From IMG/VR virus record IMGVR_UViG_3300045988_104147, positions 7,757-71,756 of that record: DNA of 64,000 bases. One strand, given 5' to 3'. This DNA comes from a virus. The position numbers were made by a program, and so were the translations under genes. Positions 27,473 through 48,300 of the stretch are shown in pieces. Each line of letters opens with the position of its first letter. Position 1 is the first letter of the stretch. The notes under the pieces were generated by a model, which worked only from the letters and a program-made list of their open reading frames with translations, was not told the DNA's origin and made no database searches.

Positions 27473-27751
27473 ATGGGCAGATCAACAGAGTACTACAGGA
27501 CTCATCCAGAAGCCAGGAAGAAAAAGGCTAAAAAGGACAAGGAGATAAATGCCAGACCGGAACAGAAAGCCAAACGCCGGGAGCTTGGTCGTAAAAACTA
27601 CGAAACGGACAAGAAGAAGGGCAAGGGCTGGAGGAAAGGCAAGGATTGTTCTCATACCAAGAACGGTCTTAGGTATAAATCAGTAAAAGCTAATAGGGGA
27701 TCCAAGTCGGATACGAAAGGTGACAAAAATGCAAGAGGAGATAGCAAATAG
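27473..27751 (+). CDS. highly basic Lys/Arg-rich small protein (histone-like / nucleic-acid-binding candidate)
   Basis: more than 35% K+R; start moved to MGRSTEYY (track ORF starts at 27428 inside an A9 tract). Confidence 0.4.
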   Translation: MGRSTEYYRTHPEARKKKAKKDKEINARPEQKAKRRELGRKNYETDKKKGKGWRKGKDCSHTKNGLRYKSVKANRGSKSDTKGDKNARGDSK

Positions 27752-28847
27752 GATAGATATAAGAAGGATATTCAAGACCTCTAAACAAGTTATGGAAGAG
27801 GCGTATGAGAATATCTTGAAATACAGGCGGGGAGAGCTTATCCCCGCTAAAACCGGATACGATTATATTGATGAGGCTTTGCTTGGAGGTATTTTCCCTC
27901 AGCACGCTATTGCCATAGGAGCCCGGCCATCTGTAGGTAAATCGTATGTGGCCCAAAAGATATTGGAAAATGTGATGAATCCGATGATCAACCCGCAAGC
28001 AGAAGATTATTTTCTTGTCAATTGCGAGTTCGAAATGAATCCTCAAGATCTTCTTCTTCGCAGAATGAGCCAGGATATGAAAAAGCGGGCTCCTGAAATA
28101 TTAAGAAGGCAAGATTCTAATACAGTAGAAGAGATGAGGATGTTTGAAATCCTTCAAGGTGAAATCAGGAATAATATAATATACATCGATGCTCCGTGTA
28201 CGGTAAAAGAGTTTGAGGCGGCTGTGTATCATATAGCTACCAAACATAAAGACAAACGTCTTATAATATTTAAAGTCGATCATATTGCTTTGATAAAAAG
28301 AATGGGATTAGATCCTAAGTCGGCTATAGATGATTTGGTGGCGGTTATGAACGAAGCTAAATTAGTATATAAAAACATATTTTTCCTCATCATATCCCAA
28401 TTCAACAGAGAAATAGAAGGAAGGATAAAAAGCCCACAAGAGCAGCCTCCGCGTCTTTCTGATTTTTACCAGTCTGATACGCTGGGTCAGTTATGTACGT
28501 TAATGATAGGCTTGCACAATCCTCGTAGGTACGGGCTGGATAAGTATATGATATTTGGGAAAGATTGGTATCAGACTCTTGATAGGTTTAAAACTGAAAA
28601 CAAAACATCATTCAGGACAGCCGGACTGGTGTTTCATCATATACTGAAGGTAAGGCAAGTTAGTATGGAAGAGCTTACTAATACAATCCACCCAGAGATC
28701 CTGCCGGGGCATGGATGGATGTACGGGGAGGGCGGGACGAAGTTCGTGAACCCTAACCAGCCGCCGACGCCGCCCAAGCTCTATACTGTGGAAGACGTTA
28801 CGGACAATCAGGAACAAGAGACAAAAGAAGAACAGTCATTGTATTAA
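27720..28847 (+). CDS. DnaB-like replicative helicase (RecA-fold C-terminal domain; Walker A GARPSVGKS)
   Basis: Walker A/B and DnaB-C-like arrangement read by eye. Confidence 0.6.
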   Translation: MTKMQEEIANRIDIRRIFKTSKQVMEEAYENILKYRRGELIPAKTGYDYIDEALLGGIFPQHAIAIGARPSVGKSYVAQKILENVMNPMINPQAEDYFLVNCEFEMNPQDLLLRRMSQDMKKRAPEILRRQDSNTVEEMRMFEILQGEIRNNIIYIDAPCTVKEFEAAVYHIATKHKDKRLIIFKVDHIALIKRMGLDPKSAIDDLVAVMNEAKLVYKNIFFLIISQFNREIEGRIKSPQEQPPRLSDFYQSDTLGQLCTLMIGLHNPRRYGLDKYMIFGKDWYQTLDRFKTENKTSFRTAGLVFHHILKVRQVSMEELTNTIHPEILPGHGWMYGEGGTKFVNPNQPPTPPKLYTVEDVTDNQEQETKEEQSLY

Positions 28848-29688: not shown

Positions 29689-30402
29689 ATGTACATCAAT
29701 TTCAGACAACTTGCAGCATCAGACATGACGCCTAATGATCTTGCCAATCTTCTTGCCATAAGACAGAAGGATACGGTTATGATCGAAGCCATGCCAGAAG
29801 AAGATGCTGGGAGATATATAGAGCTTGGCTTGGTTGAGAAATTAAAATCAGGCGTGATGAGACTAACCAACAAAGGAACGTCTTTTGTGAATTATATAGA
29901 GACACCGGAAATGACAGACGAGGTTCTGGAAACGTTGAAGATTATGATAGGGATGTACGAATCGTATTCAAAAGACATAGGTGTCAGCAGAAAAGAAGCG
30001 GAATCCAGATTGTGTTGGTTTATGGGTAATACCTCATTTAAGAAAGAGGTCATACTTCAGGTAACGGAATCTTATATAGCAGAGTCAGGAGATTACACAA
30101 TGAGCTTATGTAACTTCATATGGAAACCGCCTTCTCAGGCTTTTTCAGTCCATATGAACCTTAAAAACTCAAAGCTCTTTGACTTAATAGCTGAAAAATT
30201 TAAGATCGCTACCGAGCCTTATTTGGAGTCTAAGAAGAATAAGGAAATGGATTGGTTGTTTGCCGTATCTAAATTGCCTACGCCGCCAGCTAAAGGCAAT
30301 CCGGATTATTTGTTTACCGGAAGTTCTGAAACAGACAAAGAGCGATTGAAAAACATAAAAACATACTTATTTAACAAAATTAGAAAGCAATGGAAAAAGT
30401 AA
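29689..30402 (+). CDS. hypothetical protein (237 aa) directly upstream of the ACP gene
   Basis: ORF track. Confidence 0.45.
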   Translation: MYINFRQLAASDMTPNDLANLLAIRQKDTVMIEAMPEEDAGRYIELGLVEKLKSGVMRLTNKGTSFVNYIETPEMTDEVLETLKIMIGMYESYSKDIGVSRKEAESRLCWFMGNTSFKKEVILQVTESYIAESGDYTMSLCNFIWKPPSQAFSVHMNLKNSKLFDLIAEKFKIATEPYLESKKNKEMDWLFAVSKLPTPPAKGNPDYLFTGSSETDKERLKNIKTYLFNKIRKQWKK

Positions 30403-30641
30403 GAATCAGAAAGATAATAGAGGATATAATTATTACTCAGTTTCTTAATTCGGAAATAGATATAGTTCATGAAGAAGATGTGACGTTTAAAGAACTTGGA
30501 TTAGATTCTGTTGATCGAATTGAGCTTGATGTGATGGTGGAACAAAAATTCAATATTGTTATTATTGATTATGATATGGAGACCATCAAAGATATGACTG
30601 ATCTTGTTTACAAAATAATAACAGAAGGGTATGGGAAGTGA
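30390..30641 (+). CDS. acpP: acyl carrier protein-like (FKELGLDSVDRIELDVMVEQKFNI, i.e. phosphopantetheine-site DSL/helix II signature)
   Basis: whole 83-aa sequence aligns by eye to canonical ACP, including the conserved Ser. Confidence 0.6.
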   Translation: MEKVRIRKIIEDIIITQFLNSEIDIVHEEDVTFKELGLDSVDRIELDVMVEQKFNIVIIDYDMETIKDMTDLVYKIITEGYGK

Positions 30642-31125
30642 TATAATTTTATGCATGGCTTTAATAGCGTCATTTGCTTTTGTTATACAGTTTTTGTTGT
30701 CGATATTAGGATCTGATCTGGATACGGATATTGACATTGACAGTGCTTCTGATTTAAGTATGTCTTTGTCGGACATCATATCATTCAAGGGCATAACACA
30801 TTTTATTCTTGGATATAGCTGGACTACCTACTTTTCGGGTTCCCATTTAGTAGGGGTTGTGATAGGGTCGTTTTTCTTTATCGTTTTGTTTTACGTATAT
30901 AAGTTACTTCTTAAGTTAAAGCAAGAAATGGTGTACGAATGTCCGGAAGATTTAAATGGCAGAGAGGTGGAGATAGTGTTTAGATCAGGGAAGAATCATT
31001 ATATGGTAAATATTTCGAAAAATGGAAGACAAGAGCAAATGAGAGTAAGATGCTTGTCTGGAAAAACCTACAAAAACGGCGACAAGGTGAATATAAAATA
31101 CGAAGAAGGAGAATTAAGTATCTAA
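30631..31125 (+). CDS. NfeD-like membrane protein (YuaF/YqiJ type: N-terminal TM helices plus C-terminal OB-like domain)
   Basis: topology and position immediately upstream of the flotillin gene. Confidence 0.55.
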   Translation: MGSDIILCMALIASFAFVIQFLLSILGSDLDTDIDIDSASDLSMSLSDIISFKGITHFILGYSWTTYFSGSHLVGVVIGSFFFIVLFYVYKLLLKLKQEMVYECPEDLNGREVEIVFRSGKNHYMVNISKNGRQEQMRVRCLSGKTYKNGDKVNIKYEEGELSI

Positions 31126-31157
31126 TTTTTTTTATCAACAATTAAATTTTAAAAGTT

Positions 31158-32858
31158 ATGACAACAATCATGTACGTGTCAGCTATTTTAGCTGTAGTGA
31201 TTATTTTGACAATCATCGGAGTCTTATCAAGGTATCGTAGATGTAAGCCTAATCAGGTCTTGGTCGTTTATGGTAAGACAGGTGGGGAAAAGAAGTCGGC
31301 GAAATTATATCATGGTGGAGCGGCATTTGTCTTGCCTATTATTCAAAGCTATGATGTTTTGTCAATGGAGCCTATGCAAATAGATTGCAAGCTTACCGGT
31401 GCTTTGTCATCTCAGAATATTAGAGTAGATGTACCTACGACCATTACAGTAGCTATCAGTACAAATCCCGAAATCATGCAAAATGCGGCAGAAAGACTTT
31501 TGGGGATGGATACCGAATCTACTGAAAATCTTATTACGGACATCGTTTACGGTCAGATGCGTTTGATTATTGCTGAAATGACAATCGAAAAACTTAATTC
31601 TGACAGGGATGAGTTTTTGGATAAGGCGAGAAAGAACATTGATAACGAGCTTAACAAGTTAGGTCTTTACCTCCTGAACATCAACATCAGTGACATCAGA
31701 GACGAAGCAGGTTATATTATGAACCTTGGTAAGGAGGCTGAAAGTAGGGCTCTGAACGAAGCGCAGGCTAATATCGAAGAGCAGGAGAAGCTGGGTGCTA
31801 TTAAGATTGCTGTACAGCAGAAGGAGAAAGAAACGGCTGTGGCTAATACCAAAAAAGAACAAGAGATTCAAATTGCTTGTACTGAAAAAGAAAAGGAAAC
31901 GATAGTAGCTGAAACGAAGAAAGAAAAAGAAATAGCTTTAGCTTTAACCGATAAAGAGAAACAGATCGGTGTAGCTCAAGCAGATAGAGACAGGGCTGCG
32001 GTTATTGCAAAGACTTTGGCTGATAAGGAATCAGCGATCGTAAGATCTAAGGCAGAACTTGAAGTAAATAAAGCCGAGGCTGAAAGGATGGAAGAAGTCG
32101 GAAAGAATAAGGCTGAAGCTGACAAGGAAGCAGCTATAGCAATACAAGACTCTGAAGCTCAGATTAAGAAGGCTGAGGCTGAGAAAAATGCGTCTATAGG
32201 ATACAACAATGCCCAGAAGGAGGTTGCTGTGTCAGTATCAGAACTACAGATCATCAAAGCTCAATCAGAGAAGAAGGCCGGAGAAGAAAAAGTTAAATCG
32301 GAAGCGGCTGTAAAAACAGCAAAAGAGCTTGCCGACAAAGAAGTGGAAGAAGCTAAGGCTAAGAAAGTTCAGGCTGCGCTTAAGGCTGAAAAGATTGTGC
32401 CGGCTGAAACCCAGAAGGAAGAGGCTATCTTGCAAGCTGATGCCGAGGCCGAGAAGATCAAACGCCGGGCTGAGGCTGAGGCAGCAGCACATTTGGCAAA
32501 AGCTGAGGCGGAGGCAAAAGCTATTCAGATGAAGCTGGAGGCAGAAGCCGAAGGTAAGAAAAAGTCGTTAATGGCAGAAGCCGACGGATTTAAGGCTATG
32601 GTGGAAGCAGCAGAATCCAATCCTCAGATCGCCATCCAGTACAAGATGGTTAATCAGTGGAAAGAAATTGCTGGAGAACAGGTTAAGGCATTTGAGCACA
32701 TTAACCTCGGAAATATCACGGTATTTGACGGCGGTCAGAACAGTACCGGTAATTTCCTTAACAATGTTGTCAAGACCATCGCTCCGGCATTGGGAGTCAT
32801 AGATCAGCTTCCGATTGCAGATACTTTAAAGAAGTTAAAAGGAGATGACAAAAAATAA
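31158..32858 (+). CDS. floT: flotillin-like SPFH/band-7 protein (FloT/YqiK type) with N-terminal TM anchor and long A/E/K-rich flotillin repeats
   Basis: N-terminal TM plus SPFH start YRRCKPNQVLVVYGK, then EA/KE repeat region. Confidence 0.7.
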   Translation: MTTIMYVSAILAVVIILTIIGVLSRYRRCKPNQVLVVYGKTGGEKKSAKLYHGGAAFVLPIIQSYDVLSMEPMQIDCKLTGALSSQNIRVDVPTTITVAISTNPEIMQNAAERLLGMDTESTENLITDIVYGQMRLIIAEMTIEKLNSDRDEFLDKARKNIDNELNKLGLYLLNINISDIRDEAGYIMNLGKEAESRALNEAQANIEEQEKLGAIKIAVQQKEKETAVANTKKEQEIQIACTEKEKETIVAETKKEKEIALALTDKEKQIGVAQADRDRAAVIAKTLADKESAIVRSKAELEVNKAEAERMEEVGKNKAEADKEAAIAIQDSEAQIKKAEAEKNASIGYNNAQKEVAVSVSELQIIKAQSEKKAGEEKVKSEAAVKTAKELADKEVEEAKAKKVQAALKAEKIVPAETQKEEAILQADAEAEKIKRRAEAEAAAHLAKAEAEAKAIQMKLEAEAEGKKKSLMAEADGFKAMVEAAESNPQIAIQYKMVNQWKEIAGEQVKAFEHINLGNITVFDGGQNSTGNFLNNVVKTIAPALGVIDQLPIADTLKKLKGDDKK

Positions 32859-32866
32859 ATACAATG

Positions 32867-32888
32867 GCCCAAGGTTACACTTGGGCCT
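32867..32888 (+). terminator. perfect 8-bp hairpin (ggcccaag gttaca cttgggcc) right after the flotillin stop
   Basis: inverted repeat; no strong T-run follows, so terminator function is uncertain. Confidence 0.3.
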
Positions 32889-33021: not shown

Positions 33022-33381
33022 ATGATCAGTGTTATGGAATTGATTTTGAAACAGAAGAAGAGGAGGATGAAGAATATGACTGATGAGGAATTTGCATTAG
33101 ATAATAAAAAAAAGGTTGTTGTAAGAAAAAGAATATCTTATTTAAACAAAGGTGATAAAGTGTGGATCGTGTCTTCCGACGGGTATCTGCTGCACACGGA
33201 CGTAGTTAGAGCCGACCGAGGCCGATCTTATGTGGATATAGACGGGATACTGTATTGGAAACGTGGATTGGATGGCAAACATCGTAATCGTAACAATTAC
33301 ATGCAGTTCGCCATGACACCAGAAGACGGTAAGAAGTATGTCGTATATTACCCGGAAGGATTTAAAGACGATAGCTTATGA
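33022..33381 (+). CDS. hypothetical protein (true start may be an internal Met)
   Basis: ORF track. Confidence 0.4.
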   Translation: MISVMELILKQKKRRMKNMTDEEFALDNKKKVVVRKRISYLNKGDKVWIVSSDGYLLHTDVVRADRGRSYVDIDGILYWKRGLDGKHRNRNNYMQFAMTPEDGKKYVVYYPEGFKDDSL

Positions 33382-34397
33382 TGGTCCCGGAAACACATTT
33401 GCTATATAAGGAGTTTAATGGCGTGAAACGTCTTGCCATTTCTTATTCCCAGATAGACACGTTTCTTACTTGTCCAATGAAATGGTATAAGACTTATGTG
33501 GAAGGTAAAAGATCTACGGAAAAACAAGAAGCTACGTCTTATGGTACGGTTATTCATAAGACACTGGAATACTTCTTTAAGAACGGAAGACAGCCTTCTG
33601 GTAAAGACCTTGGAGAAGCGATAAGTTACTATGCTTACCAAGAAGACATACCTTGGCAATCACCGGAAAATATGATGATGGCCATGAAGCAATCTGGGGA
33701 ACTTCTTGCTTGGATTGTGGATCTGTTCAAAAAAGACGGCAATAGGTTTATGATAGCTGATAGTGATCTTAATCCCTGCGAGAAACTTATCAGACACGGC
33801 GCTATAGTTGGAGTCGAAGAAGATTTTGTGCTGCCGTATCGTCTTCCTAAGCCTGTTGATATAAATGGTGACGTTCATACACATGTGTACATAGTAGGAT
33901 CGGTAGACCTTCATCTGGCTATAAAAAGCAAGAACGTAGTTCACCATTATGTCATAGATTGGAAATCAGGGAATAAGGTTTTTGATTCTAAGAAGCTGGA
34001 AACAAATTTACAGCACCCTATATATTCGTTTTACATCTATAGAAAATATGGTGGGGTTCTACCAGATATGAACATCTATTTCTTTACCAGAACCAGGCAG
34101 TACCAAAAGGTTAAGGTAGATGAAGAACGTAAAACAAAATCTATAGAGATGCTAAATGACACTTTATCTAAAATGTATGATTTTGAAGATAATAGTGTAA
34201 AAACATTTCAGGCACACATCCAGGGGGCAGAAGGAGCCAGGTATAGCAAGCGGCGTGCCATCCTAAGCCAGCCTATTCCGCAAAACAAGCTACCCTGCCC
34301 GTCAGCACTGTGTTATTATTGTGACTTTGGATTACATAACAAAAACGAATGCCCTTTCTCTTCGGATTGGGATCCGTCTAAAAAGATAAAACGATGA
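33378..34397 (+). CDS. Cas4-like PD-(D/E)XK exonuclease with 4-Cys Fe-S cluster (N-terminal CPMKWY; IDWKSG; Q..Y; C-terminal Cx5Cx2Cx9C)
   Basis: RecB-nuclease motifs and Cas4-style cysteine arrangement read by eye. Confidence 0.6.
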   Translation: MMVPETHLLYKEFNGVKRLAISYSQIDTFLTCPMKWYKTYVEGKRSTEKQEATSYGTVIHKTLEYFFKNGRQPSGKDLGEAISYYAYQEDIPWQSPENMMMAMKQSGELLAWIVDLFKKDGNRFMIADSDLNPCEKLIRHGAIVGVEEDFVLPYRLPKPVDINGDVHTHVYIVGSVDLHLAIKSKNVVHHYVIDWKSGNKVFDSKKLETNLQHPIYSFYIYRKYGGVLPDMNIYFFTRTRQYQKVKVDEERKTKSIEMLNDTLSKMYDFEDNSVKTFQAHIQGAEGARYSKRRAILSQPIPQNKLPCPSALCYYCDFGLHNKNECPFSSDWDPSKKIKR

Positions 34398-34893: not shown

Positions 34894-35280
34894 ATGGAAA
34901 AGAAAGTCACAATCAAAGAAGGGATGGGTATTTTTTACAAAAATGCAGGGAAAGATATATGGGTCTATATTGGACTTTTTGGAAATAAAGTGCTATCCAT
35001 TTTAAAAAACAAAGGTGTTGTTGCATGTGAAAACGATGCTGAATATTGCGTGTTGATGGATGGAGAAGATCATTTTATAAGTATATCAAAAGACATGAGT
35101 CACGATTATTGTTGCGAGTACGTTGTAGAAAGAGCAGAAGCCCACAGAGACTACCCCTCCAAAGGTGTTACATGCAGTGTATGCCTGTTTGAAGATAATG
35201 AGAATAAAGCAAGAGAGATGTTAAAGGAGGCGATAATAGAACTTTCAAAAAACAGCAAAATAGATTGCGATGGGCTTTGA
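34894..35280 (+). CDS. hypothetical Cys-rich protein
   Basis: ORF track. Confidence 0.45.
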   Translation: MEKKVTIKEGMGIFYKNAGKDIWVYIGLFGNKVLSILKNKGVVACENDAEYCVLMDGEDHFISISKDMSHDYCCEYVVERAEAHRDYPSKGVTCSVCLFEDNENKAREMLKEAIIELSKNSKIDCDGL

Positions 35281-36691
35281 ACTTAGACCTTACCAAAAAG
35301 AGGCCGTAGATGCCGGGCTTAAGTTTCTTACAGGAAGATCTAAGAAGCCTGGCATAATCGTAGCTCCATGCGGATGTGGAAAGAGCCTTCTGATATCCAA
35401 GATAGCACATGAAATAAATAGACCGACGTTAGTATTACAGCCCTCAAAAGAGATTCTGGAACAGAATTATGCAAAGGCTGTATCATTCGGTTCTAAACCT
35501 ACCATATATTCTGCTTCATGTGGTATAAAGGAACTGTCGGCTATGACTTATGCAACATTAAAGAGCATAAAGAAAGATGTAGTGAGGTTGAAGGATATAG
35601 GGATAGATACCTTATTGATAGACGAATGTCATTCAGGATATTCTCCTGAAGAAGGTTCTGAATTTATGGAGTTTATGAACGAGTTTCCAGAGGCGAAGGT
35701 GCTGGGCTTCACCGCCACGCCCTGCCGCCTCCGGACCTACAGCTCCATGCTGGAAGGAAACTACAGCAAACTTAATATGCTGACGAAAGACGAGCATAAT
35801 TTCTTTAAGAAGATAGTTCATGTAACTCAAATACAAGAGCTAACTTCTCAGGGATTTTGGTGCCCTCTTAAGTACGAACGATGGTCGTTTGATGAATCGG
35901 CTCTGATGTTAAACAGCACCGGAGCCGAATACACCAACGAATCTATTAAAGAAAGCATTGTACGAAACGGCTTAAACAACTCTATCTACAAGCGCCTTCT
36001 TCAACTTATGAACGAACGTAAAGCCATTTTGGTTTGTATGGATTCTATCGAATCATGTAATAGAATATCAGAGTTTATGAATGCCAGGATGGGAGCCATA
36101 ACCGGTGTCGTAACATCATTAACAACCAAAAAGAAAAGAGAGCAAATCATATCCGACTTCAAAGAAGGTAAGTTGAAGGTCGTGTTTAATTATTCAACGC
36201 TTGCTACCGGATTTGATTTTCCTGAACTTGATTGTGTGATGTTTGGGCGACCAACATTTTCATATTCAACATATTACCAGGTGCTCGGCAGGTGCGTTCG
36301 TATTCATCCTGACAAGAAAGAGGCGCTAATTATTGACTGCTGCGACAACATGAGGCGTTTCGGCCGGATAGAAGATTTAACGATCGAACAATTTCCTTCT
36401 AAGGGCTGGTGTATGTTTGCCGGCAATCAGCTTCTATCCAATATAAGGATGGGTGATATTATTACCAAAGACGAGATCCTTCGCCGGGCAGCCTCGCTTA
36501 AATCTGTGAATGGAGATGGTAGGAGAGAAGATGATCTTGACAGTATAATAATGTGGTTTGGAAAATATGAAGGAATTAGATTCAAAGACATACCGGTGTC
36601 GTATTTTAGGTTCTTGGCTGAGAATATGGCAGTAAAACAGGGAGATAGGAAAGAAAAGATTATCGAATATTATAATAGGATAAAAGCATGA
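35270..36691 (+). CDS. SF2 DEAD/DEAH-type DNA helicase (motif I APCGCGKS; motif II DECH; motif VI QVLGRCVRI)
   Basis: helicase motifs read by eye. Confidence 0.7.
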   Translation: MGFELRPYQKEAVDAGLKFLTGRSKKPGIIVAPCGCGKSLLISKIAHEINRPTLVLQPSKEILEQNYAKAVSFGSKPTIYSASCGIKELSAMTYATLKSIKKDVVRLKDIGIDTLLIDECHSGYSPEEGSEFMEFMNEFPEAKVLGFTATPCRLRTYSSMLEGNYSKLNMLTKDEHNFFKKIVHVTQIQELTSQGFWCPLKYERWSFDESALMLNSTGAEYTNESIKESIVRNGLNNSIYKRLLQLMNERKAILVCMDSIESCNRISEFMNARMGAITGVVTSLTTKKKREQIISDFKEGKLKVVFNYSTLATGFDFPELDCVMFGRPTFSYSTYYQVLGRCVRIHPDKKEALIIDCCDNMRRFGRIEDLTIEQFPSKGWCMFAGNQLLSNIRMGDIITKDEILRRAASLKSVNGDGRREDDLDSIIMWFGKYEGIRFKDIPVSYFRFLAENMAVKQGDRKEKIIEYYNRIKA

Positions 36692-39611: not shown

Positions 39612-40862
39612 ATAATTTGATTATTTTACAAATAACGATTACATTTACGATATAAATCATTCAAATGAGATTAGTTGAAAGGCATATAGTTAAAGACAAC
39701 CGGTTTGAGGATATTTGCTTCAAATCCGGCTTGTTATATAATTATGTTCTTTACAACATTCGTCAAGGAGTCTTTTCTGGTAACTATTTAAAGGAATTTG
39801 ATTTATCAGACAAACTTTGCAAAGAAAACCAATTCGATTTCAGGAATTTACCTAATCATGTATCCCAACAGGTGATTAAACAGGTATTTAAAAACATAAA
39901 ATCCTGGATAAAACTCAAGAAGGATTTTGAAAAGAATCCTTCTAAATACGGAAATCATAGACCTCACCTTCCATCATACAAACAAGGTAAGAAACAAAAC
40001 ATGGTTGTTTTCACCAACTGCAATTGTAGGGTAAAGGGTGATAATTGTATTTATTTTGTTAAAGATATAATCAAACCTATCAAAACAAATGTAAAGAAAG
40101 ACGAACTAAAACAAGTTAGAATAATCCCTCAAGCTACATGTTATGTAGTAGAGGTAGTTTATGAAAGAAAGGAAACTGATCTTGGTTTAAACAAAGACAA
40201 TTTTCTTTCGATTGATTTAGGATTGAATAATTTATGTTCATGTATTAGTAATGTAGAAACTAATTCTTTCATTATAAACGGACGGGTTATGAAATCAGTA
40301 AATCAGTGGTACAATAAGAAGAAAGCTAAGTTGATGTCTTTTGTTGGTAATAAGGGAACTTCAAATAGAATAAGAAAAATTACTTTGTTTAGAAATTGTT
40401 GGATAGAAGACAAATTGCATAAAATCAGTAGATACATTGTAGACTTTTGTAAATCTAACAATATAGGAACAATCATCATTGGATTAAACAAAGAATGGAA
40501 AAACGAGATAAATATCGGTAAAAGGAATAACCAACATTTTGTTTCTATTCCTCATTCTAAATTGATTGATAAGATTGTTTACAAAGCAAATCTTTTAGGG
40601 ATAGAGGTAATTACTCATGAGGAATCTTACACATCAAAGATTGACCATCTTGCTTTTGAACCTCTAAAGAAACAAGAATCCTATTTAGGGAAAAGAAAGA
40701 AACGTGGATTATTCCAAAGTTCCGTTGGAAAGCTAATTAATGCTGATATTAATGGAGCTATAGGAATAGCAAGAAAAGTAGTCGGTGATTCTTTCATTGG
40801 AAAGATAATCGATAGTGGATTTGTGTTTAATCCGGTTAGAATAAATATTTTGTGATATAAGG
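39612..40862 (+). mobile_element. IS200/IS605-family tnpB-only element (IS1341-like), boundaries approximate
   Basis: tnpB ORF with a short AT-rich 5' leader that resembles the leader of the second copy; no tnpA. Confidence 0.35.
39665..40855 (+). CDS. tnpB: TnpB (OrfB_IS605) RuvC-like RNA-guided-nuclease homolog. RuvC D/E/D intact (SIDLG, HEESYTSK, NADINGA); zinc-finger cysteines absent
   Basis: split RuvC motifs in canonical order; 396 aa. Confidence 0.8.
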   Translation: MRLVERHIVKDNRFEDICFKSGLLYNYVLYNIRQGVFSGNYLKEFDLSDKLCKENQFDFRNLPNHVSQQVIKQVFKNIKSWIKLKKDFEKNPSKYGNHRPHLPSYKQGKKQNMVVFTNCNCRVKGDNCIYFVKDIIKPIKTNVKKDELKQVRIIPQATCYVVEVVYERKETDLGLNKDNFLSIDLGLNNLCSCISNVETNSFIINGRVMKSVNQWYNKKKAKLMSFVGNKGTSNRIRKITLFRNCWIEDKLHKISRYIVDFCKSNNIGTIIIGLNKEWKNEINIGKRNNQHFVSIPHSKLIDKIVYKANLLGIEVITHEESYTSKIDHLAFEPLKKQESYLGKRKKRGLFQSSVGKLINADINGAIGIARKVVGDSFIGKIIDSGFVFNPVRINIL

Positions 40863-41797: not shown

Positions 41798-43150
41798 AAA
41801 TAATAGATTCTATTCTGTAATACAAATGTAATTCGTATCTTAGATATATGATTCATAGACAATATTTATAGTATTAAAAATCATGAGATTAGCATACAAG
41901 TTCAACATAGGAAACAATGAAAATATATCATCTCTGTGCAAGATTAGCAATAACTTGTACAATCAGGCATTATATATTTTCAGAGAAACACTTTCTAAAG
42001 AAGATAAGTGGTTATCCTATTTTAAACTTGATTCTATCATGAAGAATACCAAGAACTTAGATGGAAACATTAATTACAGATTACTAAAGGCTCAATGTTC
42101 TCAACAAGTTCTTCGTATTCTTGATAAGAATATAAAAAGCTATTACAAATCGGTCCAAGATTACAAAAAACATCCAAATAAGTATAAAGGGAAACCGGGT
42201 CTTCCAAGTTATAGGAAAAGAGGATCTGAGTTTAACATGTATTACACGAATCAGAATTGTAAGATTAAAGATGGGAAAATTGTTCTTTCAAAGGAACTTT
42301 CGATAGATATTCCTCAATATGAAAAGTATTCTGATTTGATTAAAGATTTTAAACAGATTAGAATAGAACCATTAGCGTGTGGATATAAGATAGAAATCAT
42401 TTATGAGGTAAAAGATACTGAAGTATCTAAAGGTAGGGAAGAAAAAGTTGCTTCTATTGATTTAGGAATAGACAATCTTGTAACATTAGTTAGTGAAGAT
42501 TTTACCTATCTTTTTAGCGGTAATTTTGTTAAATCATATAATCAGAGATTTAATAAAACACTTGCTAAATTAAATAGCATAAAGGATTTACAAAAGATAA
42601 AAGGAACAACAAAACGAATAAAGAAATTATATTATGATAAAGAACAGTACATAGAAGATGTCTTTCATAAAATCAGTAGAAAGATAGTTAATTTACTTAT
42701 CGATTCTAAGATAACAAAATTAGTTGTAGGCTATAACAAGGGATGGAAAACTGGAGTAAACATGGGAAAAAGAAACAACCAAAAGTTTACCCAAATCCCT
42801 TTTGCGAGATTAGTAAGTTATTTAGAATATAAATGTGAATTATCTGGTATTGAAATAGTTATTCACGAAGAATCATATACTTCAAAATGTGATTCATTGG
42901 CATTTGAGAAGATAGGAAAACATGATAGCTATTTAGGAAGAAGGAAGAAACGAGGATTGTTTCAATCTTCAGTAGGAAAACTCATAAATGCAGACGTAAA
43001 TGGAGCATTAAACATTATGAGAAAAGTAGTCGGTGATTCCTGTGAATCAATTTGTAGGATAATCGATAGAGGGTTATTGTTTAACCCGGTAAGGATTACG
43101 AATGTATTTTGTTAAGAAGGTGCATTCCGAGACTTATAAAGAAATGTAAT
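41798..43150 (+). mobile_element. second IS200/IS605-family tnpB-only element, boundaries approximate
   Basis: tnpB ORF with a related leader; no tnpA. Confidence 0.35.
41883..43115 (+). CDS. tnpB: TnpB (OrfB_IS605) paralog. RuvC D/E/D intact (SIDLG, HEESYTSK, NADVNGA); zinc finger reduced to one Cys
   Basis: C-terminal roughly 70% identical to the first copy, N-terminal half diverged. Confidence 0.8.
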   Translation: MRLAYKFNIGNNENISSLCKISNNLYNQALYIFRETLSKEDKWLSYFKLDSIMKNTKNLDGNINYRLLKAQCSQQVLRILDKNIKSYYKSVQDYKKHPNKYKGKPGLPSYRKRGSEFNMYYTNQNCKIKDGKIVLSKELSIDIPQYEKYSDLIKDFKQIRIEPLACGYKIEIIYEVKDTEVSKGREEKVASIDLGIDNLVTLVSEDFTYLFSGNFVKSYNQRFNKTLAKLNSIKDLQKIKGTTKRIKKLYYDKEQYIEDVFHKISRKIVNLLIDSKITKLVVGYNKGWKTGVNMGKRNNQKFTQIPFARLVSYLEYKCELSGIEIVIHEESYTSKCDSLAFEKIGKHDSYLGRRKKRGLFQSSVGKLINADVNGALNIMRKVVGDSCESICRIIDRGLLFNPVRITNVFC

Positions 43151-45352: not shown

Positions 45353-48300
45353 CTACTTGTAGCTCACATCATCGTCTCCTTCTGAATCAGGAGTGGCACC
45401 GATGAAGAACATCATTGACTTGTTGTTCGTCTGCTGCCACCAATTATAGGCGCGTGCTACGTCTTCTGGTGTCTTGATATTATACCATTGTTTGATAAAC
45501 GTCTGTTTGGCGAGCTGCCTAAATAACTTAGACTCTCCTTTGTATGTACCGGATGTTACTTTATCAAGTGAGTAGTTCCTAAGATCGGTAAGATCCTTCA
45601 ACTTCCGTCCCATAACAAACGGGTCGTTAATGATATCAACCACATTAAGCTCCATAATAAATGGCATCTGTGAAGCTATTTCGTTTATGGTTCTGAATCC
45701 GACATAGGATCCAAATTGAGTAAGCCAACTTTCTTCGTTTTCATCATCATCACGCCATCCGGCAAGAAGCATAGATACGGCCTGCATGATAAGGAACGTG
45801 CCGGCATAGACACTGAGGCGTTTGAGATTAGTTTTTTCTACCTCATTCATATTGTCTTTATTTTCGTTCCAGGCATCTATGATGTTTTTCATACCAGACT
45901 CGGAAGCCAGGCTAAATGTTTTGGCTATCATATTCTTTAACGTAATTGACAACCCTTCCTCTTCTTGCATTGTCTGGAAATTGAAGCCACGTCTTTTCCA
46001 CAGACGTTGAGCTGCCAGCACCAGCCAGCCTCGGTGGGCGGTCATGAACCTGGCTATCCAGTTGCGCGATGCGGCAGTTCGGTTTTCTTCATTCAAAGAT
46101 CCGTTACATATCTGCGACAAGCTACGGACTTGATTCCTGGTTATAGCCATCTGGGTTTCAACTTCCTCAACAGTAACACCCGATCCCGGCTTTACAACCA
46201 CCTTTCCATCCACGACGTCTACCATACTCCATAAAGTACGATCTTTTAATGCGTTCCATTCTCTTTTTATGGTACTCTGTTCTTTATTGCGTTCTTTTTC
46301 CATCTTGAAATCTTGGAACGTGTAGAACCGACCTTTGTAATAACGAACATTGTCCATAGTAGCAATCATAACCTGCGGATCAAGAGGGTAGTTCAGGATT
46401 TCCATAAAAGCATACATAGGTGAACGCATTAAGGTCCTGGCCACTCTATTGTATCCGGCACCATACATACGATTTCGGATATTGAATATCCCCATTCTCT
46501 CACCTATGACATATAATTTGCTTTTCCTATCTATGTCTCCGGTTTCTGCTATACAAGATGGAGCAAGGCGTGAAAATTCAGCCGATGCGTATTTAAGGGA
46601 ATCTTTACTTATATACTGTCCTACGGCAGATTCCATGATGAGGTTGATATGACCTGTTAAGGCGCCGGTAGCTGCCACAAACGGGGACAGTGCCAAGTTC
46701 ATGACCGACATAAATCTTTCAACAGCCATCATAATTCTTGTAAGGTCTACCGTATATCCTCCGATGTTCACCGTAAGTTTTTTGGTGTTCATCCTAATGC
46801 CATAATAATGATCGTTGAAGAAGTCCCTGAACATCTGATATGCTTGGGTTGCTTCAGCCTTTTTACCACCTTCAAATTGTTTATTCAGTAACATCTGCTC
46901 CAGTCCTTGAGCGAGCTCTATAGACTTCTGCTTTTCGTTGTATAACGATGACTGCATCATAAGCATCGAATAAGAGTAGCCAAAATCGTGAGATACATCA
47001 TCTTGGTTCTCCAATTCATATATGTAGTATTTAGGTATAGACCTAAGTCTGTCTTCCGGATCATACACTTCTCCTTGCCTGGTTTTACCGTATAAAGAAT
47101 CGTCTACTCTGTCCAGGCACAGATCTGATACAAAATTACGAACCGTATTTTTGAAGTTAATACCCAATCCTTCTATACGTTCTATATCTTGTTTTGATAT
47201 CTGTGGAATAGCATACAGGTTCGGGCTCTGCTCTTTGTATAGATCAAGGGATTGTCTTTTTATTTCCTTGAGTTTTTGAATCATATTCCACTGCTCTACG
47301 TTTTTAGTAGCAACTTCATTACCGTCAGCATCATACTTGATACCAAAGTCATTGAAATAAGATTCATCACGATACAGGCTTTTCTTAGGCATTCGATGAC
47401 CATACCCATGATCTTTTACATAATCAGGATTACGGCCGTTATTTTCGGCTTCAGATTCAGCCACCCATGCCCTTGCAGGATCGAAAGACAGGTACGATAT
47501 GTTCATGCCATAATCTTGGGTGGATGTACCGTTTTGCACGTCCTTAACCATCTGCGCCACATCTATCTCACCTCGACCTATTTTGTCGATCATAGCCGCA
47601 TATCCGGTAGGCGCCATGCGTTTATAGTAGGAAAAGACCTGGCCCCTGGCAAATTCATTAACAATAGCATTAGCTTCTTCTACACCCTCTTCTCTTGTAT
47701 TATTTAAAAACAAGCTGGCCATCTTAGCATTAACAGCATTCCTGAAATCTCTACCGTCTAATTCTTTGCTTATACCAAGCTTTTCTGACAGGTAGTTGGT
47801 TTCAGATACGGTAAACAGATATCGGTTATCAGCAGCCTTAAACAGCTTATCCCTTAAAGCCTGAATCCTTTTTGCTTTCTTCGCCGTAGTATGACGTTGT
47901 ACGAACTTCCATTCCACTTCCTTGGAGTCAGCAAGAGCATTTAAATAAGACTGATTTACTTCGTTTTCGGCCTTACTGCTTTTAGTAAGGTACTTATCAA
48001 TATCTTCAAGACCCACCATCTTAGCATAATCTATTAAGATAGCGTAATCAGCTTCAATAGCTTCAGATGCGGCCCTAAAAGCATCTCTTTCAGATGAGGT
48101 AAATGTCGCTTCGTTAATTTCTCCGATATCAGCCACATCTCGGTTGTTTCCGATTATTTCCTTGATAATGGCCTTATTTTTTTCTATATCTTTCACAATC
48201 GAATCCACGTCAGTCGCATCTCTATCACTTGTCGTAGAACTAATGATATCATGCGCCATTTTAAGATACGAAGCCTTGTTATTTGATTCGGTGCGCGCCG

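Follow-up and report, generated by a model that had tools for sequence, protein, structure and literature searches.

A putative host-derived NfeD-like/flotillin gene pair next to an orphan acyl carrier protein gene in a common human-gut phage

In several bacteria, the gene for an SPFH protein lies beside one for a short NfeD protein composed of transmembrane (TM) helices and an OB domain, as in yuaF-floT and yqeZ-floA of Bacillus subtilis, yqiJ-yqiK and ybbJ-qmcA of Escherichia coli, and nfeD-floA of Staphylococcus aureus. To our knowledge, none of these operons includes a gene for an acyl carrier protein (ACP). What bacterial flotillins and their NfeD partners do remains a matter of debate, and we know of nothing reported about their role in Bacteroidales. 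Among the complexes described, QmcA-YbbJ forms an SPFH-NfeD cage of 26 heterodimers on the membrane, and the FloA-NfeD complex of S. aureus stabilizes unfolded proteins under stress (PMC13086221). In this work, we analyzed a 64,000-nucleotide stretch (hereafter, the window) of the virus record IMGVR_UViG_3300045988_104147, in which three consecutive plus-strand open reading frames (ORFs) encode a divergent ACP (ORF1), a putative NfeD-like membrane protein (ORF2), and a flotillin (ORF3). A model working from the letters of this DNA (the sequence-only reading) had proposed these three genes as one phage-borne operon, and their coordinates proved to be exactly as it gave them (Table 1).

On balance, we favor the reading that this phage carries a diverged copy of the NfeD-like/flotillin scaffold of its host clade as an auxiliary host-maintenance module, with the ACP as a separate element. 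The phage would then make its own flotillin and cognate NfeD partner during infection. By analogy with SPFH-NfeD complexes, the pair is expected to form a cage-like membrane hetero-oligomer, as the products of the operons named above do, and such SPFH cages would sit on the inner membrane, at its cytoplasmic face, where they may keep or re-specify membrane organization and membrane-protein homeostasis while the phage replicates and assembles. The scaffold would then serve host maintenance and belong to neither the virion nor the replisome. The ACP would be an orphan carrier protein that host enzymes activate and load.

The pair as such is a feature of Bacteroidales chromosomes. A scan with the flotillin alignment against one genome per prokaryotic species returned 80 loci, and every locus with an assigned name is from Bacteroidales (Bacteroides, Parabacteroides, Phocaeicola, and Prevotella, together with the related Xylanibacter and Leyella). 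A gene of the ORF2 family lies directly upstream of the flotillin gene in 80 of 81 cellular loci; the exception is cut by a contig end. In Bacteroides thetaiotaomicron, B. xylanisolvens, Parabacteroides goldsteinii, Phocaeicola vulgatus, and Prevotella spp., for example, the NfeD-like gene ends approximately 20-35 nt ahead of the flotillin start, and the phage has the same two genes in the same order and with near-identical spacing, ORF2 being co-oriented with the flotillin gene and separated from it by a 32-nt AT-rich gap. The products also share their architecture: a flotillin with TM, SPFH, coiled-coil, and Flot segments, and an NfeD-like protein with three TM helices, an acidic loop, and an OB barrel. 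Unlike the chromosomal pairs, the phage pair sits among replication genes and evolves faster, and it is flanked by an ACP gene on its upstream side and by a small ORF with a TM segment on its downstream side, neither of which occurs in the 81 host loci.

The chromosomal flotillins of Bacteroides, Parabacteroides, Phocaeicola, and Prevotella are 62-67% identical to the phage protein over the full length. When 15 host flotillins from seven genera were compared with a Bacteroides reference, identities ranged from 74 to 96% (83-96% for 14 of them), whereas the phage flotillin is approximately 65% identical to all 15; for this reason, we regard it as an equidistant, faster-evolving outgroup of the host proteins. 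Compared by domain with one Bacteroides flotillin, the identity is 75% for the TM and SPFH part and 78% for the C-terminal part, and it falls to 60% in the coiled coil. The phage NfeD-like protein is 33-41% identical to the host copies. The ratio of nonsynonymous to synonymous diversity (piN/piS) is 0.042 for the flotillin gene and 0.066 for the NfeD-like gene, which indicates strong purifying selection and resembles the values of the replication genes nearby; among five other genes measured, four have values of 0.008-0.085, and orf50 has 0.37. The simplest reading of these comparisons is that the two-gene host module was captured as a unit and then underwent accelerated evolution in the phage. 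With homologs in the host clade, fixation in the phage, and purifying selection, the pair has the characteristics of host-derived auxiliary (moron) genes.

The viral context is consistent across independent records. The region shares 97% identity with the complete genome (151 kb) of the human-gut phage csAssE-Sib (OR575929.1), which already annotates the three genes as 'acyl carrier protein', 'transmembrane protein', and 'flotillin family protein' and in which they are flanked by genes for a DnaB-like helicase, a primase, and an exodeoxyribonuclease. The flotillin is encoded on 165 IMG/VR stretches, from which 80 loci were kept, all at least 96% identical. Looking for the trio elsewhere, as the sequence-only reading had advised, we found the NfeD-like gene next to the flotillin gene in all 84 viral loci and the ACP gene in 83 of them. 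A second phage lineage keeps the module as well, with 82% identity for the flotillin, 63% for the NfeD-like protein, and 38% for the ACP. Single ACP and flotillin sequences or clusters occur on hundreds to more than 1000 contigs (at least 1000 for one ACP sequence), and more than 2000 members belong to each of the protein clusters of ORF2 and the flotillin. These observations are best explained by a very common tailed phage of approximately 151 kb that infects human-gut Bacteroidales. We infer the host clade from the flotillin and NfeD-like homologs and from the Bacteroidetes-associated carbohydrate-binding proteins annotated in OR575929.1. The structural proteins of that genome bear crAss001-style names (ring and muzzle proteins), and we do not assert a 'crAss-like' or Crassvirales label, the nearest cultured relatives of the capsid protein being the Cellulophaga phages phi4:1 and phi17:2 at 34% identity.

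Because two of the three genes have their closest homologs on Bacteroidales chromosomes, it could be asked whether host DNA was mis-assembled onto phage DNA or whether the genes are a recent, functionless passenger. Some IMG/VR material does look like host sequence: L174 (IMGVR_UViG_3300045988_141550), a contig of 25 kb, encodes a flotillin 96% identical to a Bacteroides chromosomal copy and is probably host sequence or a prophage flank. The other IMG/VR flotillins reached with Bacteroides-type patterns belong almost all to the present phage clade, at 66-67% identity to the Bacteroides query. The chimeric assembly that the sequence-only reading had named as a possible refutation was not borne out, since the same junctions with phage replication genes recur in 84 independent viral loci, in the complete GenBank genome, and in the second lineage. 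Moreover, no cellular flotillin homolog exceeds 67% identity, and both genes of the pair are under strong purifying selection within the phage population. Recurrent junctions, divergence from the hosts, and selection together led us to reject mis-assembly and neutral carriage, which we consider extremely improbable.

The identity of ORF3 as a flotillin, proposed from the sequence alone, was confirmed by profile searches: it matches Band_7 (PF01145) at 7.6e-26 (91.7 bits; cutoff, 23.6) and the Flot C-terminal domain (PF15975) at 1.7e-9 (38.3 bits; cutoff, 27). Its translation shows an N-terminal hydrophobic anchor (approximately residues 4-24), the SPFH/Band 7 domain, a coiled coil rich in E, A, and K, and the Flot domain, and the alignment shows the same layout in the host flotillins. 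The TM anchor described by the sequence-only reading thus stands, as does the E/A/K-rich middle part of the protein; its long EA/KE repeats do not correspond to any tandem repeats at the DNA level. Judged by sequence score, the phage protein is not an ortholog of FloT (144.7 bits against a cutoff of 700 for the equivalog NF058507 of NCBIfam). With a GC content of 42.7%, the gene ranks third highest among 56 ORFs, the mean of the replication arm being 36.8%. The coiled coil (31788-32507) varies in length through in-frame deletions, giving proteins of 404-577 aa among the viral loci (variants P0288, P0287, P0293, P0294, and P0297; L083 and other loci), and a 481-aa form occurs on a 151-kb contig. 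A change in the length of the coiled coil would alter the height of an SPFH cage. The apparently truncated forms P0302 and P0270, which have many members, were set aside because they end without a divergent tail and look cut by contig ends.

This length variation, together with the faster evolution of the phage flotillin (62-67% identity to all hosts, against 74-96% of host copies to the Bacteroides reference) and an NfeD partner of its own that has diverged much further (33-41% identity to the host copies), would also fit a different role. The pair may be a takeover or exclusion device that co-assembles with the host flotillin or displaces it (the two being approximately 65% identical), such that membrane clients of the host (for instance, receptors, secretion systems, or the FtsH protease) are sequestered or released; phage proteins would be protected, superinfection blocked, or membrane-linked defenses disabled. 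The SPFH proteins HflK/C cage FtsH and set the stability of lambda CII, and the flotillins of B. subtilis interact with FtsH, which counts in favor of such a device. Nevertheless, neither PADLOC nor any other defense-related source gave a match for the ACP, the NfeD-like protein, or the flotillin. The TM+SPFH and C-terminal domains, still 75-78% identical to those of the host, are compatible with an unchanged biochemical role. We consider a takeover device unlikely. A defense system in its own right was rejected, as none of the three proteins has a match in PADLOC-DB.

The assignment of ORF2 required evidence other than profiles. Neither ORF2 nor its close relatives match PF01957 even at E <= 10, and ORF2 has no match in Pfam, PHROGs, NCBIfam, or PADLOC. 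Its family, collected by an exhaustive profile search, comprises 408 representatives, mostly of 155-180 aa; among 69 sampled members, two reach PF01957 (best 6e-5), and the family profile gives a weak match to YuaF (2k14, E = 0.25). The AlphaFold2 model (predicted local distance difference test, pLDDT, 73.8 overall and 83-90 in the C-terminal domain) has three TM helices (residues 2-25, 52-69, and 72-101) followed by a small beta-barrel, which is a five-stranded OB-fold barrel like the solved NfeD domains. The best Protein Data Bank (PDB) matches of the model are NfeD C-terminal domains and YbbJ, with full-length YbbJ in the QmcA-YbbJ complex (8z5g) as the top Foldseek match (119 columns, E 0.018). 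In BFVD, a viral protein 35% identical to ORF2 is named 'NfeD-like C-terminal domain-containing protein'. Thus, the NfeD claim of the sequence-only reading is supported by the predicted fold, the architecture, and the synteny, and it fails at the profile level. We propose that ORF2 is a divergent, short NfeD-like protein rather than a profile-level member of the family. In this respect, the phage pair differs from yuaF-floT and the other SPFH-NfeD operons, as ORF2 falls below the PF01957 threshold and its partner is not a FloT ortholog.

Two further observations concern the NfeD-like family. The loop between TM1 and TM2 of ORF2 (residues 28-48; 30700-30780) contains an acidic DxDxDxD repeat, which reads DLDTDIDIDSASD in the window; the family consensus is GDxDxDxDxDG..DxDxSD..SFKG..HF. 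The repeat is conserved in host and phage copies, and it resembles metal-binding loops of the DxDxDG type. In addition, several metagenome variants (P0020, P0027, P0031, P0028, P0033, P0046, and P0047) have the N-terminal part of the NfeD-like protein fused in frame to the Flot domain. In these fusions, a large deletion (within 30631-32858) has taken away the OB domain together with most of the flotillin; each of them is rare, being found on 1-4 contigs.

For ORF1, the searches agree with the ACP identity that had been proposed. Its score for the PP-binding family (PF00550), 26.4 bits, exceeds the cutoff of 20.8, it matches PHROG 5934 ('acyl carrier protein') at 2e-8, and all 55 of its PDB sequence matches are ACPs, structural mitochondrial ACPs among them. 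The phosphopantetheine-site motif pointed out by the sequence-only reading, LGLDSVD, is present, and the attachment serine is invariant within G-[LF]-D-S-[LIVA]-D in the 83 viral loci (variants GLDS[LIVA]D and GFDSLD). In the second lineage, the ACP is recognized by the PP-binding profile with 32.7 bits, and the serine, the LGLDS[LV]D motif, and the termini are conserved. ORF1 scores 28-29 bits against the housekeeping AcpP equivalogs (NCBIfam TIGR00517 and PRK00982), far below their cutoffs of 70-71, and for this reason its sequence is classified as a divergent orphan ACP with a predicted ACP fold rather than an AcpP ortholog. The acidic residues of helix II that AcpS recognizes in canonical ACPs are kept. 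Given the retained serine, its motif context, and these acidic residues, the protein probably still carries a phosphopantetheine arm. No phosphopantetheinyl transferase (ACPS), acyltransferase, or fatty-acid-synthesis family was found among the 74 other ORFs of the window in a family scan, and no acyl-handling or phosphopantetheinyl transferase gene is named in the listed part (approximately 144 of 151 kb) of OR575929.1; host enzymes would therefore have to activate and load the ACP.

Several patterns set the ACP apart from the scaffold. Its gene has a GC content of 29.8%, far from that of the flotillin gene, and a piN/piS of 0.35. Between the two phage lineages, its identity of 38% compares with 63-84% for the neighboring genes. 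No ACP-like ORF was found within 4 kb of any of the 81 host NfeD-flotillin loci by phmmer, with the phage ACP and manually entered ACP sequences of E. coli and B. subtilis as queries; this agrees, for Bacteroidales, with the remark of the sequence-only reading that an ACP belongs to no cellular arrangement of this kind known to it. The differing GC content, the much faster rate, and the lack of cellular co-occurrence argue that the ACP is a separate, phage-specific, fast-evolving addition whose adjacency to the scaffold is probably positional.

An alternative seems fairly unlikely to us, although several observations point in its direction: the NfeD/flotillin cage would bind holo- or acyl-ACP, which would serve either as a structural subunit or as a local acyl donor in a membrane domain specified by the phage, where it would supply lipid synthesis or the acylation of proteins or lipids. 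Mitochondrial ACP is a structural subunit in complex I and other assemblies, and such structural ACPs are among the PDB matches of ORF1. The ACP gene lies directly upstream of ORF2, and the 11-nt overlap between them is found in 76 of the 83 ACP-bearing viral loci. Its invariant serine, a piN/piS below 1, and the retention of its motif and termini in the second lineage at 38% identity also speak for it, and in flavobacterial jumbophages, ACP modules adjoin genes for envelope, secreted, and lipoproteins (PMC13573597). Weighing against such docking are the absence of the ACP from the cellular NfeD-flotillin loci (0/81), the GC content and evolutionary rate that are unlike those of its two neighbors, and the flotillin of Vibrio phage KIT04, which has no neighboring ACP. 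The gene order itself is of little help: the whole arm is syntenic between the phage lineages, so conserved adjacency says nothing specific about the trio, overlaps are common in this arm, and the ACP gene overlaps the 237-aa gene on its other side just as tightly (13 nt).

A more elaborate version, which we consider very unlikely, joins the ACP, the NfeD-like protein, and the flotillin, perhaps with the 50-aa TM ORF and the 237-aa protein, into a phage-specific membrane machine in which the cage fences an inner-membrane patch and holo- or acyl-ACP docks as acyl donor or structural subunit. If true, it would be a virus-built lipid microdomain that aids replication or assembly in Bacteroidales, and in bacteria it would parallel the membrane platforms on which eukaryotic viruses replicate.

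As had been stated, the trio lies within a replication arm. The genes around it encode a DnaB-like helicase, a PD-(D/E)XK exonuclease, and an SF2 helicase (Table 1). Across 14 consecutive genes between 27.7 and 36.7 kb, the intergenic gaps are 14, 15, 2, -13, -11, 32, -14, 24, -4, -4, -4, 6, and -11 nt. The claimed overlap of ACP and ORF2 is indeed 11 nt long (30631-30641), and it is ordinary locally, because overlaps are the norm in this arm. The 237-aa gene upstream of the ACP gene has no match in Pfam, PHROGs, NCBIfam, or PADLOC, and a profile search of the PDB with its product gave no match; its single-sequence AlphaFold2 model (pLDDT 35) was unusable, and tblastn matched it in OR575929.1 only. 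It is 76% identical between the two phage lineages, with a piN/piS of 0.05, and its product could be the real partner of the ACP.

Table 1. Positions in the window of the trio, the neighboring genes, and the conserved hairpin.
Feature	Position	Strand	Basis or context
DnaB-like helicase gene	27720-28847		Flank of the trio
Conserved gene with no assigned function, 237 aa	29689-30402	+	No family match
ORF1, orphan phage acyl carrier protein (ACP), 83 aa	30390-30641	+	ORF list
ORF2, divergent short NfeD-like membrane protein, 164 aa	30631-31125	+	Fold, architecture, synteny
ORF3, flotillin, 566 aa	31158-32858	+	Band_7 and Flot profiles
Possible small tail-anchored membrane protein, 50 aa	32845-32997	+	ORF list; hypothetical in OR575929.1
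Conserved GC-rich hairpin, 8 bp	32866-32887	+	Inverted-repeat search
PD-(D/E)XK exonuclease gene	33378-34397		Flank of the trio
SF2 helicase gene	35270-36691		Flank of the trio

A perfect 8-bp hairpin, which the sequence-only reading had taken to close the unit, is present 7 nt past the flotillin stop (GGCCCAAG-6 nt-CTTGGGCC). It is exact in 67 of the 84 viral loci; in the second lineage, it reads GGCCCAGG/CCTGGGCC, with one compensatory change from A:U to G:C. In the alignment, 97.5% of the cells are paired, and the covariation is not significant (198 of 500 shuffles equal it). The stem is followed on the plus strand by TAATTGAAGAAG, with no T-run (U-tract), and a terminator scan reports the minus strand only; the hairpin is thus not a canonical intrinsic (rho-independent) terminator. 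The hairpin may be an RNA processing or stability element, or it may merely reflect a constraint of the 50-aa ORF in which it lies. The flotillin gene and this ORF share 14 nt at the flotillin stop, across an A6 run (GACAAAAAATAA). A C-terminal hydrophobic/TM helix is kept in both lineages at 34% identity, and the piN/piS of the ORF is 0.37. It is putatively coding and possibly specifies a small tail-anchored membrane protein. In the singletons P0227 and P0247, the flotillin reads through into the 50-aa ORF, which fits a 1-nt change in the A run. For a dedicated promoter, a sigma-70 scan gave weak matches only; no plus-strand match to the Bacteroides-type -33/-7 promoter was found near the module, and the count of such matches in the window is at chance level. 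With overlaps as the local norm, no promoter found, and a hairpin that has no U-tract, the idea of a discrete, translationally coupled three-gene operon closed by a terminator was not supported.

Further features were noted outside the trio. The replication arm contains two inserted TnpB-like genes (OrfB_IS605 with a Cas12f1-like TNB domain; 39665-40855 and 41883-43115), and the alignment between the window and OR575929.1 is interrupted around them, at 37.0-40.9 kb and 41.8-45.1 kb. PF11195, the Tad2-like (Thoeris anti-defence 2) domain, is recognized in one ORF of the window at 3.6e-11; this ORF is no homolog of the DUF2829 protein of OR575929.1, for which tblastn found no match in the window. 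OR575929.1 (L166) has an annotated diversity-generating retroelement, with variable and template (VR/TR) repeats and a reverse transcriptase by a putative tail fiber gene (45751-46326 and 46419-47816, outside the window).

Comparable genes are rare among described phages. SPFH matches were found in 11 of 50,697 GenBank phage records, several of which are unannotated fragments, and besides csAssE-Sib, the only credible case is Vibrio phage KIT04 (LC487410.1). Its 'flotillin family protein' is likewise a Band_7 protein (approximately 470 aa) of a tailed phage. It differs in having approximately 30% identity over the SPFH domain only, no Flot match, and no recognizable NfeD or ACP beside it. Other phage ACPs (PHROG 5934 and the jumbophage ACP modules) resemble ORF1 in being small orphan PP-binding proteins of large genomes with no cognate synthase (PMC13573597), whereas ORF1 lies directly ahead of a membrane-scaffold pair. 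In the full-text literature, we found no paper on csAssE-Sib, none linking crAss-like phages with flotillin or flotillin with phages and ACPs, and none describing a phage-encoded NfeD/SPFH copy. The names of the three genes are already public in OR575929.1. What is new here is the assignment of ORF2 as NfeD-like, the reading of the pair as a captured Bacteroidales module under selection, and the observation that the ACP is phage-specific and absent from the host loci.

The juxtaposition of the ACP with the scaffold offers a specific hypothesis that is cheaply testable, and its interest would be high only in the event of a functional link between the two. The interest of the pair itself lies in the biology of the hosts. 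That a highly prevalent gut phage keeps the two genes under strong purifying selection may be taken as natural evidence that the scaffold matters during infection. The phage pair provides an experimental handle on the role of the SPFH-NfeD cage in Bacteroidales, and it bears on whether phages manipulate bacterial membrane organization as eukaryotic viruses do with the membranes of their hosts.

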